Positions 9,442-53,588 of a stretch of DNA of 64,000 bases are shown one piece after another. The translations under genes and the position numbers were made by a program. Each line of letters opens with the position of its first letter. Within the stretch, counting starts at the first letter, position 1. The notes below the pieces were generated by a model. It did no database searches. It was not told the origin of the DNA and saw only the letters and a program-made list of their open reading frames with translations. The DNA is taken from assembly GCA_934692295.1 (NCBI GenBank), contig CAKUTL010000003.1, positions 8,031 to 72,030 of the forward strand, written 5' to 3'. This stretch comes from an uncultured Candidatus Melainabacteria bacterium. Lineage in GTDB: Bacteria > Cyanobacteriota > Vampirovibrionia > Gastranaerophilales > Gastranaerophilaceae.

Positions 9442-9473
9442 GTCAATTTATGTTATAAAAAAAACTTTATATA
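9442..9473 (+). promoter_or_regulatory. copy 1 of upstream motif GTCAATT-N17-TTTATATA
   Basis: GTCAATT 9442-9448 and TTTATATA 9466-9473. Ends 28 nt before ATG 9502. Confidence 0.6.
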
Positions 9474-9501
9474 AATAAGAGTACTAACCTGAGAGGATTT
9501 T

Positions 9502-9900
9502 ATGAGCTTTGCAAGCACAATGAACATATTGAGCAACATCAATTGTTTCTTGAGTTCGGGAGTAACATACTTAGAACAACGGAGACATGGGGTCGATGCC
9601 GGAACAGCAACATTCGGGTTGTTTAACAATATTGGAAATGGAATGGCTAGAAATGCGATTGCTTATGATATGGCTAAATGCGGTAATCCTATTGGATATG
9701 ATATAAATTTAGCATACGGGTACGGAAACCCTGTCGCAAATACTTGTGCGACAATGGGTTTAATGACGGCTTGCTCACCTTGGATGTTCTTCAATTCTCC
9801 ATTTTGCGGAATAACTCCTTGTTATGGTATGGGAATGCCTTATGCAGGAGGGTTTAACATGGGATTTGGATACGGATACAACCCTGGATTTTTCTGTTAA
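9502..9900 (+). CDS. Gly/Cys/Met/aromatic-rich hypothetical protein
   Basis: 132 aa, 7 Cys, C-terminal GFNMGFGYGYNPGFFC low-complexity tail, no Sec signal. GAGAGGA SD before the ATG. Confidence 0.6.
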   Translation: MSFASTMNILSNINCFLSSGVTYLEQRRHGVDAGTATFGLFNNIGNGMARNAIAYDMAKCGNPIGYDINLAYGYGNPVANTCATMGLMTACSPWMFFNSPFCGITPCYGMGMPYAGGFNMGFGYGYNPGFFC

Positions 9901-11219
9901 GCCTTCACAGATTTATCATTCAGCACAGTAGAAATCACAGCAACATATGTCCAGAACATAAATTGCAATTGTGGTCTAAAGTAAATTGTATCAACTAAGC
10001 CGTGAAACATTACTGCCCATATAGAAATTATTGATGCGGAAATAAATATAACTTGTTCTCTGTTTTCAGATAACAAGATATATTTTACGGCATCTTTTGA
10101 CATTGTGATTAAAAATCCCAAGAATGCAATTAGAGCAAAAATACCACTTTCAACAGCAGTTTCAAGATAAATATTATAAGCACTCAAAGCATCAAAGCCT
10201 GTTTTCATATACAAGCCGTAAATTTCTCTAAAATTCTTATTTCCAACACCAATGCCCAATAACCAATTATCTTTGAACATTTGCAATGAAGAATGATAAA
10301 CATTAAATCTAAATGAGTTTGATGAATCATTACGCATCGCAAAAATTGACATAAAACGATGTCTTAAAGCACCTACAAAAGTCATCGCAAACACAAATAA
10401 CGCAAATGCTCCACCAATAATAGATAAATAGATTTTTTTATAAGTATTCCAAAAAAATTTTGCAGATAATAGAAATACACAACCAAATATCAACATCATT
10501 GACAAATATGCACCTCTACAACCAGTTTGCAAAATAGTATAAACCGTAAGCAATGCAAAAGCAACTGCACCAAGCATTAGCTTAAATTGTTTTTTATTTA
10601 AGAAATAGAATATTGAGCCAATTACAGAACCTAAGCCTGCAACTAAATACCCACCGTACAAGTTAGGATTTAATGGTTTCAATGTTCCATAAACACGAGA
10701 TAAAACATCTTCTGGATTCAAGTTTGAAGTATCTTGCCATGTTGAAATTTCATCTAAGTGTAAGAAACTTTGCAAAAATCCAACGATACTTTCACCGCAA
10801 ATACACAAAACCATTGTACCCATAACTACTGGGATTTTTGAGGTATTATTTTTCAAATACTGAGCAACAGAAAAATAAAAACCCAAGTAAACAAAAGTCT
10901 TAAAAAAGCCCTTCAAGCTCAATTCAAACAATGTTGAACCAAAAAGACTCACGACAACTAACATAAAATAAGCCACCAACCAAATTTCAAAATGCTTGAA
11001 GCTCAGTTTTTCATTTGGTTTTGTGAGCATTTTAACAATAGTCAAGAACATTGCAATCAAGGCAAAAAAGCCTATTGAATCCGAGTTCATAAATGTTGAT
11101 GATAAAAATGTTACCATTATAAACAACAAAATGAACTTGTCTATATGCTGTAAAAATAAGCTATTGTCGTATAAAAAACTTAATTTATCTTGTGAAAATT
11201 TAAAAATTTTATTGAACAT
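9897..11219 (-). CDS. O-antigen ligase/polymerase-like (Wzy_C family) membrane protein
   Basis: 440 aa, polytopic. The GCRGAYLSM segment before a large loop is typical of O-antigen ligase-like proteins. Confidence 0.65.
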   Translation of the reverse strand: MFNKIFKFSQDKLSFLYDNSLFLQHIDKFILLFIMVTFLSSTFMNSDSIGFFALIAMFLTIVKMLTKPNEKLSFKHFEIWLVAYFMLVVVSLFGSTLFELSLKGFFKTFVYLGFYFSVAQYLKNNTSKIPVVMGTMVLCICGESIVGFLQSFLHLDEISTWQDTSNLNPEDVLSRVYGTLKPLNPNLYGGYLVAGLGSVIGSIFYFLNKKQFKLMLGAVAFALLTVYTILQTGCRGAYLSMMLIFGCVFLLSAKFFWNTYKKIYLSIIGGAFALFVFAMTFVGALRHRFMSIFAMRNDSSNSFRFNVYHSSLQMFKDNWLLGIGVGNKNFREIYGLYMKTGFDALSAYNIYLETAVESGIFALIAFLGFLITMSKDAVKYILLSENREQVIFISASIISIWAVMFHGLVDTIYFRPQLQFMFWTYVAVISTVLNDKSVKA

Positions 11220-11778
11220 CGTCTGTAGTATTCATCTCTTTATTAACAACTTCATCATCAACGGCATCAATTACTTTAATATCTGAAACTGAACCGGTAA
11301 ATTTGTAATCAGCACCTTCCAAAGTGATAGGCAAACCTAATTTAACCTTGTTTCCACCTACAACGGCACCATCTTTTGTAATTTTTGCAGTATCAGTCAA
11401 TGTAACAACAACATCATACAAGTCAGGTTGAGATTCATCTTCAACAACAATTACAACCTTTTTAGAATTCAAAGATGGAAGAACAATTTTTCTTCTATCC
11501 GCTTTTACATCCACAATATCCAAATCAGAATAAGGAACATTTCTAATACTGATGAATGTTTTTTCACCTTTTTTGATAGGAATACTATCACCAGAGAAAG
11601 TTACCCCTCTCATATAAACTTTGAACACGATTTTAGAAGTAGCTTCAATTTGTTTATCCGCAGTTTGTCTGTATCCTTTGTAAGTACAAAAACCAACAGC
11701 CAAGGCAACAATAACAAATGCCACAATAATAAAATCAACAATTCTTACTTTTTTTATCAGTTCTTTTAATTTTTCCAT
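11209..11778 (-). CDS. DUF4330-like membrane-anchored protein
   Basis: 189 aa, N-terminal TM. ISIRNVPYSDLDIVDVK and KVKLGLPITLEGADYKFTGSVSDIKV resemble the cyanobacterial DUF4330 family as I recall it. Confidence 0.6.
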   Translation of the reverse strand: MEKLKELIKKVRIVDFIIVAFVIVALAVGFCTYKGYRQTADKQIEATSKIVFKVYMRGVTFSGDSIPIKKGEKTFISIRNVPYSDLDIVDVKADRRKIVLPSLNSKKVVIVVEDESQPDLYDVVVTLTDTAKITKDGAVVGGNKVKLGLPITLEGADYKFTGSVSDIKVIDAVDDEVVNKEMNTTDDVQ

Positions 11779-51709: not shown

Positions 51710-51776
51710 AATTCTCCCCTTATAGCAAATTTTACCAAAAACTCGGGAGTAAGCTATACTGCATTTAGAGGAGATT

Positions 51777-53537
51777 TTAAGCGGCTATTTTTGTTTTTTC
51801 AGCTTCTTTTAAATCCTTTGAAACAAGTTGCGGAGTTATACCCTTTTTAGCCTGTTGATGTTCTTTCAATTTTTTATCCATAAAACTGCCCATTTTCCCA
51901 AGAAGAATAGAAGAACCGATACCTAGAGCCATAGCTTTAGTTCCTGCATACAATTTTGCGTTACCATACAATGAAACACCTAAACCGGCGATTGCAGGGA
52001 AGCCGTATTTCAAAGAAATTGAAACTCTTTCGTCGTTATCTTTAGATTTACCCAAGTAGTAACCTAAAGTTACAAGCCCGCCAAGAATTGTCAAAACATC
52101 TGTTGGAGCAGAACCAAGAGATAAATCCCTCACTTTACTTATAAAATCATCTGTTTCAATTTTTATTGAGTTGTCGAGATTTTTAACACCTTCTCGATAG
52201 AATTTTTCAACAGTTTTATAATCTGATTCAGGTAATAGTTTTTTATAAAGAGTTAACATTTCTTCTACCTTACCTGGTTTGAAATTCAAAACCATTTCCC
52301 TAAGTTCAGTAACATTCTCAACTAATCTAGAACCAACTTCTTTATCTATAGAATTACTTTGAATTGCTTTATTAATTTCTGCTCTGAAATCATCCGCACA
52401 GGATAAAATTTCTTTTCGAATTTTACTATCATTTGTTCCGGTTTGGATGTATTTATAAATTGACTGTCTGATATTTCTAAGCATATTTATTTTGCCAATA
52501 TCATTATGACTGATAGAATGAGTCATCTGAATTATCATTTTATCAGTATCAGAATGAAAATCTTTTAGAGAATAAGAAATATCTTTTCTATGACCTCTAA
52601 CCAATTTTTGAATAGCAGTTTTTTCTGCAGAAATTGCGTCCTCTGCCATGAAAGATGTAACTAAATCTGAAGACCAGAAGGTTTTTAAATCCTTGAAATG
52701 TTCTTCTAATTCTTTTGCAGCCTTTTTGACACGCAAATATCTGCTGCTACGAATTTCTTCGCCAAAATGTTTTTCATACATTTTAGCTAAATCATCATCC
52801 ATCTTGAGCAAGTGTTCTAGCCATTGAATTCTTGTTTTCTTAACGCCATTAATTTCAACGACTTCACCAGCTTTACGAGAAAAAGCCTTCATACTCGTAC
52901 CGGCAGCCATATCCCTCGCTAAGTTGAATGTTCTGGATGATTCTTTATAAGCATTCACTACAGCTTGTCTTCCGATTTTTTCAAATAATCTTGTTGTTGC
53001 TTGATGTAAATACCTTGTCGGTTTCGTCAAGTACATTATTTTCTTAAATGCGGAATCTTTTAAACTTGTATAGTTATTGATAGCTTCTGAACCATGTTTT
53101 ATTTTGTCCAATTTGCCAATCATATAAATATAAAAACGATTAATTGGAGTATCGCTCATATTATTCAACTTTGATTGTTGAACTTTGTATTCTAAATGAT
53201 TTTGTAATTTTCTAAAACCTTTAGAAACCCCTTTCGGACCGCCTTTCAAAACAAAGAAAATTCCTGCAGCCGTTGTTACAACAGCACCGGCAATTGATAG
53301 ACCGATAAGTTTTGCATTGTTTGTTTTTCTTGCTTCTTCCGGTGTTAAAATTTGAATTTTAGGAAGTGATGATTTTTTCTCTTCTTCTTTTTTATTCTCT
53401 TTATTTATTTCAACAGTATCAGGCTGTTGAGCCATTTTATCGTTTAACAGCCAATAACTGTTTGACTGTTGCGGTCTATTAGAAACCAAGTCAAACGGGT
53501 TTTCTTTTTTATCTATTTGAGATACTGAATTTATCAT
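51777..53537 (-). CDS. hypothetical membrane protein (orphan)
   Basis: 586 aa. Acidic/Lys-rich N-terminal region, a TM near aa 78-97, a long helical middle and 2-3 C-terminal hydrophobic segments. Confidence 0.6.
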   Translation of the reverse strand: MINSVSQIDKKENPFDLVSNRPQQSNSYWLLNDKMAQQPDTVEINKENKKEEEKKSSLPKIQILTPEEARKTNNAKLIGLSIAGAVVTTAAGIFFVLKGGPKGVSKGFRKLQNHLEYKVQQSKLNNMSDTPINRFYIYMIGKLDKIKHGSEAINNYTSLKDSAFKKIMYLTKPTRYLHQATTRLFEKIGRQAVVNAYKESSRTFNLARDMAAGTSMKAFSRKAGEVVEINGVKKTRIQWLEHLLKMDDDLAKMYEKHFGEEIRSSRYLRVKKAAKELEEHFKDLKTFWSSDLVTSFMAEDAISAEKTAIQKLVRGHRKDISYSLKDFHSDTDKMIIQMTHSISHNDIGKINMLRNIRQSIYKYIQTGTNDSKIRKEILSCADDFRAEINKAIQSNSIDKEVGSRLVENVTELREMVLNFKPGKVEEMLTLYKKLLPESDYKTVEKFYREGVKNLDNSIKIETDDFISKVRDLSLGSAPTDVLTILGGLVTLGYYLGKSKDNDERVSISLKYGFPAIAGLGVSLYGNAKLYAGTKAMALGIGSSILLGKMGSFMDKKLKEHQQAKKGITPQLVSKDLKEAEKTKIAA

Positions 53538-53556
53538 AAAATCACTAGCCTACTCT

Positions 53557-53588
53557 TATATAAAATAGTAGGAATATTAAAAATTGCC
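53557..53588 (-). promoter_or_regulatory. copy 6 of upstream motif (GGCAATT-N17-TTTATATA on the minus strand)
   Basis: Plus strand reads TATATAAA 53557-53564 and AATTGCC 53582-53588. 19 nt upstream of ATG 53537. Confidence 0.55.

Follow-up and report, generated by a model that had tools for sequence, protein, structure and literature searches.

A conserved bipartite promoter-type element upstream of lineage-restricted genes and a small RNA candidate in gut Gastranaerophilales

Promoters read by alternative sigma factors of the sigma-70 family, among them those of the extracytoplasmic function (ECF) type, FliA, SigF and SigJ, consist of two short boxes held at rigid spacing and in fixed orientation, stand a few tens of nucleotides (nt) before start codons and serve discrete sets of non-housekeeping genes beside canonical sigma-A promoters. 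An element that is like them in all these respects, but differs in that its box sequences match no described consensus, occurs six times in a stretch of 64,000 nt from an uncultured Candidatus Melainabacteria bacterium (GenBank assembly GCA_934692295.1, contig CAKUTL010000003.1, positions 8,031 to 72,030 of the forward strand), which is called the window in the following. The bacterium belongs to the Gastranaerophilales, which are uncultured but common in the guts of humans and animals and are the non-photosynthetic sister group of the Cyanobacteria.

Two cyanobacterial promoters invite direct comparison. The SigF-dependent pilA1 promoter of Synechocystis carries TAGGC in the -32 region and a GGTAA at -12 that is its most critical part (PMC2532724), and the J-box of SigJ promoters has an invariant GGG as extended -10, followed by aAtacT (PMC6495340). 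In another type of promoter, the -35 is replaced by an activator site, as in the pho box of PhoB, RpaA at PkaiBC and the MotA box of phage T4, and a sigma-A-like, AT-rich -10 is combined with a non-canonical element at about -30 to -38. RpaA binds beside the -35 element and touches both sigma-4 and the alpha subunit's C-terminal domain (alpha-CTD; PMC12916501). RpaB binds the high-light regulatory 1 (HLR1) site, two direct 8-nt repeats of (G/T)TTACA(T/A)(T/A) that lie 2 nt apart, and the activating HLR1 sites of Synechocystis are centred between -66 and -45 (PMC6525291). Homologues of RpaA, RpaB and NblS are reported to be encoded by Melainabacteria (PMC3787301, PMC4040986). A literature search on promoters, sigma factors and small RNAs (sRNAs) of Melainabacteria returned nothing relevant, and one on sigma factors of Gastranaerophilales gave nothing relevant among the papers listed.

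The bipartite element in the window and in related genomes

A preliminary description of the window had reported six exact copies of RKCAATT-N17-TTTATATA and had roughly estimated that well under one should occur by chance. Coordinates and strands of all six were reproduced, and the estimate turned out to be sound: 0.0103 copies are expected from the base composition of the window (Poisson P(>=6) = 1.6e-15), and 100 dinucleotide-preserving shuffles yielded no match. The downstream box TTTATATA is found 17 times on the two strands, and in 6 of these 17 cases the upstream box lies exactly 17 nt away. As had been stated, every copy is intergenic, in a window that is approximately 90% coding (10% non-coding) and has a G+C content of 33%, and five copies point at a start codon, at distances of 28, 27, 31, 51 and 19 nt for copies 1, 2, 4, 5 and 6, respectively. 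The target of the remaining copy, at 15024-15087, is indeed a unit without open reading frame (ORF) that ends in a hairpin and a run of eight T. Outside the two boxes, a comparison of the six copies found no common sequence, which excludes a repeat element as their origin. The copies and the genes downstream of them are the following (aa, amino acids; bits are matrix scores):

9442-9473, plus strand: putative promoter copy 1, 28.1 bits, with -35-like box TCAATTTA at 9443-9450 and -10-like box TTTATATA at 9466-9473
9502-9900, plus strand: 132-aa Gly/Cys-rich protein without Pfam domain, downstream of copy 1
13793-13824, minus strand: putative promoter copy 2, 29.1 bits, with GCAATTTT box at 13816-13823 and TTTATATA at 13793-13800
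12950-13765, minus strand: 271-aa protein with low-complexity N-terminus, one hydrophobic segment and C-terminal J domain, downstream of copy 2
14987-15018, plus strand: putative promoter copy 3, 32.3 bits, the predicted sRNA promoter
27144-27175, minus strand: putative promoter copy 4, 35.7 bits
25237-27112, minus strand: two-gene unit downstream of copy 4, encoding a 484-aa protein (25658-27112) and a 134-aa protein (25237-25641)
32480-32511, minus strand: putative promoter copy 5, 34.6 bits
32204-32428, minus strand: 74-aa Lys-rich protein, ATG at 32428
53557-53588, minus strand: putative promoter copy 6, 27.7 bits
51777-53537, minus strand: 586-aa membrane protein without Pfam domain, with 258 homologues in the clade

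Conservation upstream of orthologous genes was examined most broadly for the 484-aa family. A search of the genome collection with the alignment of this family gave 38 loci, from metagenome-assembled genomes (MAGs) labelled Gastranaerophilales, Melainabacteria or 'Cyanobacteria bacterium' and derived from gut and rumen. The motif is present upstream in the same register in 32 of the 32 loci with an upstream region (30 distinct sequences), down to a protein identity to the window of approximately 38-45%, two distant 'Cyanobacteria bacterium OH' MAGs being among them. At these loci, the spacer drifts freely between species, and GCA is constantly followed at 35-36 nt by a conserved AGGGG in the leader. 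The gene order is kept as well, with a DUF2582 winged helix-turn-helix (HTH) gene, a terminator hairpin, the motif, the 484-aa gene and the 134-aa gene following one another. Orthologues of the 586-aa protein (loci L159-L162, 43-56% identity) are preceded by GCAA(T/A)TTT and a TT-(T/A)ATA(A/T)(A/T) box in register, and both boxes are kept in register before orthologues of the 132-aa protein (L163-L165, 52-64% identity). Informative comparisons of orthologues cover copies 1, 3, 4 and 6 and none is available for copies 2 and 5: the sole match to copy 2 elsewhere (L276) is identical to the window in both site and leader and consequently gives no independent evidence of conservation, and the J-domain gene is not syntenic in L163 and L164. 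By this comparison, the copies represent a strongly conserved promoter-type element in dozens of gut Gastranaerophilales species and not a local oddity.

A logo of the element was built from curated intergenic sites weighted by family (effective N ~16) and is numbered from the first base of the motif as originally described. It consists of a -35-like box G2 C3 A4 A5 T6 T7 T8 T9 with 0.7-1.9 bit per position, an A-rich stretch at the end of the spacer (positions 18-23), a -10-like box C24 T25 T26 T27 A28 T29 A30 W31 A32 with 0.5-1.3 bit per position, and a purine- and G-rich block from about position 36-40. The consensus of the putative promoter class is written as GCAATTTT-N15-TTTATAWA. With a weight matrix from independent families, exactly six matches were obtained in the window at each threshold between 12 and 20 bits. 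An early matrix had drifted during iteration into the coding sequence of a helicase gene and was discarded in favour of one rebuilt from curated intergenic sites; the conserved coding sequence CAATGTTTAATGTTCAATTTTGTATATAAAAATA at 28151-28190 (plus strand) inside the 1294-aa helicase gene, and at orthologous positions, mimics the motif and was rejected as a false positive. In a sample of 1.63 Mb, comprising the window and all fetched Melainabacteria loci, the cleaned matrix found 170 matches of at least 14 bits versus 9 expected from local shuffles. The preliminary description had proposed to scan related DNA in this way for enrichment before genes, and such enrichment was found: 57 of 62 unique non-sRNA matches of at least 17 bits are followed within 12-70 nt by the start of a co-directional ORF, as opposed to 8 in the reversed-orientation control.

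The genes downstream of the scan matches fall into approximately 24 independent families. The idea of a regulon of orphan genes could thereby be extended to the whole clade, as the matches stand nearly all just upstream of co-directional genes without Pfam domain, and no high-scoring match in the 1.63 Mb precedes a recognizable housekeeping function, in agreement with what had been noticed for the window. Ten further family representatives had no Pfam domain above cutoff, and recognizable features are limited to the J domain, a weak RelA/SpoT signal, an HD-like protein, a small ribbon-helix-helix protein and an HExxH motif. Among the proteins encoded in the window, the C-terminal J domain was verified (DnaJ match of 29.3 bits at a cutoff of 27.8), and translation confirmed the labels Gly/Cys-rich for the 132-aa protein, which has 21 homologues, none of them named, and Lys-rich for the 74-aa protein. 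The label 'RelA/SpoT-like' needs to be toned down: the 484-aa protein of the window itself has no Pfam match, and PF04607 is matched weakly by 5 of 21 homologues (best E 7e-5). As delineated by the matrix, the predicted regulon is one of clade-restricted genes, many of them for membrane or low-complexity proteins, together with one highly conserved candidate sRNA of the trans-acting type. In L163, a gene with a Pfam match to AvrB_AvrC adjoins a gene with the motif that encodes an HExxH protein (18025-18948, 19302-20447), a hint that some regulon members may be secreted or effector-like.

The best -10 register appears to be TATAWA at positions 27-32, without this being proven; we prefer it because it is the only one in which the A at the second position and its neighbours are conserved in every family. 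In the 586-aa family, the corresponding hexamers are TATATA, AATAAT, TATAAA and AATAAA, and a subgroup of sRNA promoters has TAGAAT, shifted by 1 nt. The registers AATACT (positions 20-25, SigJ/RpoS-like) and TACTTT (positions 22-27, giving TAGGCA-17-TACTTT) fit many sites and were set aside as less likely alternatives, since the 586-aa family and the sRNA subgroup fail to fit. The most likely start of transcription would be a purine with a G-rich stretch behind it, 4-7 nt beyond the downstream box. This placement agrees with positions 38-40, where the conserved body of the sRNA sets in, and with the purine- and G-rich blocks (GTAGG, GTAAGG, ATAGGGG) that recur from about position 38 at independent promoters.

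Several observations concern the surroundings of the copies. Leaders of the 484-aa, J-domain and ~170-aa families have A(T/C)AGGGGA(T/A)A in common at the predicted start of the transcript (window 27100-27143 and 13766-13792; L121-L150, L160, L203, L254, L267, L277); in these AGGGG-type leaders a second purine block follows that serves as Shine-Dalgarno sequence, and other regulon leaders begin with GTAGG or GTAAGG. The common block may be an element of translation or of the initially transcribed region that these leaders share. A winged-helix protein of 90 aa, DUF2582 (27247-27519, minus strand), stands out by its conservation, with 79-99% identity across species, compared with ~40-55% for its neighbour proteins. 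In every case its gene is found just before the 484-aa gene, and a covarying ATTACA-N-TGTAAT hairpin with a T-run (27180-27215) stands between the two. A Gastranaerophilales DUF2582/484-aa/134-aa locus with 83-99% protein identity to the window also occurs on contig L130 (CAVAPR010000022.1), which was deposited as 'Candidatus Methanomethylophilaceae archaeon', a label that is probably due to a binning error. A likeness of TTTATATA to the archaeal TATA box was dismissed: the DNA is from a bacterium, the second box is not adjacent but 17 nt upstream, and the archaeal title of L130 is probably wrong. Exact copies of the FeoB of the window are present on human-gut metagenome contigs.

Known promoter classes and other promoters of the same DNA

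Compared with sigma-A promoters, the motif deviates on its -35 side. The hexamer 17 bp upstream of TATAWA is AATTTT and the conserved GCA occupies -38 to -36; GCAATT would need a spacer of 19 bp and TAGGCA one of 22 bp, and the -35-side element is unrelated to that of sigma-A and displaced by 2-3 bp upstream. On the -10 side, where sigma-A promoters have TAnnnT, T27 (0.86) and A28 (0.88) are conserved, and the last position is A in 77% and T in 19% of the family-weighted sites. At -14/-13 the motif has TT where the housekeeping promoters of the clade have TG. Examples of the housekeeping -10 in this clade are TGGTAAAAT, TGATAAGAT and TATAAT: the helicase gene has a TG-extended -10, TGnTAAAAT, that is conserved in 25 genomes, the rpsF promoter contains TGATAAGAT, and the promoter of the tRNA operon is a perfect TTGACA-17-TATAAT (4838-4866), as had been pointed out in support of the view that the motif is not the default promoter.

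The comparison with alternative sigma factors gave a similar picture. The motif contains neither AAC and CGT at a distance of approximately 16-17 bp, as in ECF promoters, nor the TAAA-N15/16-GCCGATAA of FliA/sigma-28, and the GG and GC that sigma-54 reads 10 bp apart at -24/-12 have no counterpart, as positions 13-14 downstream of G1-G2 are unconserved. With the pilA1 promoter of SigF it shares TAGGCA on the -35 side in part of its sites, with frequencies of T(-1) 0.61, A0 0.56, G1 0.45, G2 0.78 and C3 0.90 and an exact TAGGC in 2 of the 6 window sites, but it lacks GGTAA or any other G-rich element before the downstream box and is A-rich at positions 18-23 (PMC2532724). Likeness to the J-box is limited to AATACT in 3 of the 6 window sites, whereas the GGG is missing (PMC6495340); the 586-aa family does not conserve A21. 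A structural parallel outside alternative sigma factors is offered by promoters with activator-replaced -35, which combine an AT-rich -10 with a non-canonical element in the same region and of which the regulator type, in the form of RpaA and RpaB homologues, exists in this lineage. Their sites are tandem repeats, however, as in the TAAA-N7-TTAA of RpaA (PMC12916501), whereas the motif has one non-repeated box of 8-9 bp. The motif fails the defining features of every promoter class compared, and the best reading is a new promoter class in this uncultured lineage. A sigma-28/FliA-like TAAA-N16-GCCGATAA does occur elsewhere in the window, at 44669-44696 (plus strand), before the gene of a 1444-aa protein without NCBIfam match (44731-49065).

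The preliminary description had singled out an ECF sigma factor encoded at 60219-60716 as a possible reader of the motif. The gene was confirmed; it is the second of an operon (59874-61312), after that of a 114-aa protein and before that of a periplasmic LTXXQ protein. The L174 orthologue of the 114-aa protein contains an HxxxCxxC pattern, which points to a zinc anti-sigma factor. Encoding of the sigma in the same window and the position of the sRNA gene directly upstream of the ECF operon in several lineages would favour its acting on the motif. Against it, the motif lacks the hallmarks AAC and CGT, and the window scan gave no copy before the ECF operon. The operon has a promoter-like sequence of its own, TGAAC-N16-CGT at 59826-59849 (plus strand), which follows the classical ECF pattern, has nothing in common with the motif, is conserved in at least 5 genomes and is kept also in the lineages in which the sRNA adjoins the operon. 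A classical ECF promoter pattern upstream of the sigma's own operon is what is expected from autoregulation. With this, the proposed link could not be upheld: we rejected the ECF sigma as reader and regard it as very improbable that the motif is its promoter.

The candidate small RNA and HLR1-like sites

Copy 3 and its surroundings differ from the other copies in the absence of an ORF downstream, and contain the following features:

14952-14969, minus strand: HLR1-like tandem repeat TTTACAAA-AG-TTAATATT, 17 nt upstream of the -35-like box of the predicted sRNA promoter, with two mismatches to KTTACAWWNNKTTACAWW
15024-15087, plus strand: candidate sRNA of ~60 nt with a predicted 5' end, consisting of a single-stranded CU-rich 5' part, AAAGCUCUCUCUUCUUAUUUAAACGG, and an intrinsic terminator

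The 5' 24-26 nt of this sRNA are invariant, unpaired and CU-rich (AAAGCUCUCUCUUCUUAUUUAAACGG), and compensatory changes are found in 4 of the 11 pairs of the terminator stem. The sRNA is nearly identical between species whose proteins are only ~47% identical, and at least 120 metagenome contigs from gut and rumen contain its 23-nt core (sRNA loci: window, L136, L137, L140, L164 and L166-L285). The motif precedes it at a fixed register in 76 of 104 distinct loci; the remaining loci mostly have TAGCAA at the same register and a variant -10 such as TTTTTAGAAT. With a predicted promoter of its own, an intrinsic terminator, a conserved unpaired seed and no ORF, it has the traits of a trans-acting sRNA. 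It resembles Yfr1 of Cyanobacteria and the RsaE type of Firmicutes in its length of ~60 nt, the invariant unpaired pyrimidine-rich 5' region, the terminator hairpin and the promoter of its own, but differs in sequence from all Rfam families, none of which was matched in a search with the sRNA. It is a new, very widely conserved candidate of the trans-acting type. The seed is anti-Shine-Dalgarno-like; targeting of the regulon leaders was considered and dropped, as duplex energies ranked the five regulon genes of the window 2, 14, 32, 36 and 45 among 63, which is no enrichment. Short contigs were also tried as proxies for transcripts and their 5' ends, and were set aside as uninformative since the contigs are metagenomic. 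In the window and in L164 the sRNA follows a small XRE-type HTH gene, and in several other lineages it immediately precedes the operon of the ECF sigma.

Matches to the HLR1 consensus with at most two mismatches were found in 46 of 81 sRNA promoters, compared with 2.9% of AT-rich background windows. The element occupies positions -34 to -17 of the sRNA promoters, and this position is fixed in 54 of the 81. Its centre is predicted to lie ~60-64 nt upstream of the sRNA start, within the range of activating sites in Synechocystis. It differs from cyanobacterial HLR1 sites in its occurrence in a non-photosynthetic lineage, its reverse orientation and a degenerate second repeat. An OmpR-family response regulator encoded in L161 has RpaA as best match in the PDB (E 5e-60) and RpaB as best NCBIfam model, the latter below the model cutoff. 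We infer from these similarities that an RpaB homologue may be the ligand of the HLR1-like site. Looser TTACA, TGTAA or TTAAC elements stand before many promoters of the class, approximately 4-5 nt or 15-18 nt from the box. Within 40 nt upstream of the promoters, TTACA or TGTAA occurs in 11 of 24 independent families versus 17% of the background (P~1e-3).

Possible readers of the element and its meaning

We consider it somewhat probable that the six copies belong, as core promoters, to a separate class that spans the lineage, GCAATTTT-N15-TTTATAWA, and that they are read by an alternative sigma factor. A specificity factor other than sigma-A and the neighbouring ECF sigma would then direct RNA polymerase to these promoters, with region 4 of the candidate sigma reading GCAATTTT and region 2 reading TATAWA. 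An alternative sigma is favoured because the upstream box is single and asymmetric and stands at rigid spacing, as expected for region 4 and unlike the site of a dimeric regulator, and because the -10 is atypical. The box measures 8-9 bp and its spacing varies by 1 nt at most (+/-1); a search for a tandem or inverted partner that keeps its distance to the box gave none. An apparent upstream partner, GTAAT, in the 586-aa family was discarded since the lpxB coding sequence ends there and its distance to the box varies. Of the earlier interpretation, the orientation-specific promoter-type element, the orphan regulon and the distinction from the default promoter have stood, and the suggested role of the ECF sigma (60219-60716) has not. 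What is said here about promoter function, transcription start and a sigma-factor mechanism draws on sequence conservation and position. Several findings speak against reading by an alternative sigma. A jackhmmer search seeded with the ECF sigma yielded only ECF orthologues and no candidate sigma in the 1.6 Mb sampled, and these 1.63 Mb are a biased sample of few syntenic neighbourhoods and not a whole genome. The -10 register is ambiguous in AT-rich DNA, where TAGGCA-17-TACTTT can be read in many sites but not in those of the 586-aa family, and sigma-A-like hexamers (AATAAT, TAGAAT) in some orthologous or variant promoters fit sigma-A with an activator equally well. The conserved A-tract of the spacer and the upstream TTACA/TGTAA, finally, indicate that more than the two boxes is selected and that at least one DNA-binding regulator is probably involved.

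The principal competitor of the alternative sigma, which we judge unlikely, is that the promoters are read by sigma-A and that their -35 is replaced by the site GCAATTTT of a dedicated activator, which would touch alpha-CTD, sigma region 4 or both in the manner of PhoB, RpaA and MotA of phage T4, TTTATAWA being an ordinary AT-rich -10. All of the orthologue -10s TATAAA, AATAAT, AATAAA and TAGAAT are indeed near TATAAT, OmpR regulators of the RpaA/RpaB type are encoded in Melainabacteria (PMC3787301, PMC4040986), including that of L161 with its E value of 5e-60 to RpaA, and both the A-tract and the enrichment of TTACA/TGTAA (11/24 families vs 17%, P~1e-3) would suit an activator. However, OmpR/PhoB-type and most other activators bind repeats, whereas the box is single, 8-9 bp long and without repeat partner; moreover, the last base of the -10 is A in 77% of the sites in place of the near-invariant T of sigma-A, and the TG extension is absent. 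A smaller share of our expectation goes to the upstream box and A/T tracts being an operator of a repressor or nucleoid protein laid over a weak AT-rich promoter, in which case the genes would be co-repressed rather than share a promoter specificity. The partial symmetry between the T-tract T7-T10 and the A-tract A18-A21 and the conservation of the spacer end (0.4-0.65 bit per position) agree with an operator, but symmetric partners are lacking for the bases of highest conservation (G2, C3 and C24), the box keeps one fixed distance to the -10 box and one orientation to the gene, and no recognizable -35 is left once the box is taken away, which together make this improbable. Chance clustering, or remnants of repeated or mobile elements, might be suspected because motif and genome are both AT-rich. 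Such an origin is effectively refuted already and hardly worth considering further, in view of P~1e-15, the lack of likeness among the window copies outside the boxes and the presence of the motif at orthologous positions in dozens of species; a scan of viral contigs with the degenerate motif gave, among the matches listed, only single matches at chance level.

Going beyond the alternative-sigma reading, it is conceivable, though rather doubtful in our view, that a new promoter specificity, residing in a sigma factor or in a reader of the -35, controls a clade-wide regulon of genes found only in this lineage together with the conserved sRNA, and that RpaB/NblS provides input via the HLR1-like sites. 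The regulon would then comprise membrane, low-complexity, RelA/SpoT-like and HExxH-containing proteins and an sRNA with anti-Shine-Dalgarno-like character. If this were true, it would show what a 'photosynthesis regulator' did before photosynthesis, or does without it. In the HLR1-like site, the RpaB homologues of a non-photosynthetic lineage, a puzzle of long standing, may have a first candidate target. Should the reader prove to be a new sigma specificity, a promoter class would be added to the known repertoire; should it be sigma-A with an adaptor, a new example of -35 replacement would be gained. For the biology of the Gastranaerophilales, the motif provides a concrete and testable handle on gene regulation, and its matrix picks out about two dozen uncharacterized gene families that are candidates for a lifestyle- or host-related programme.

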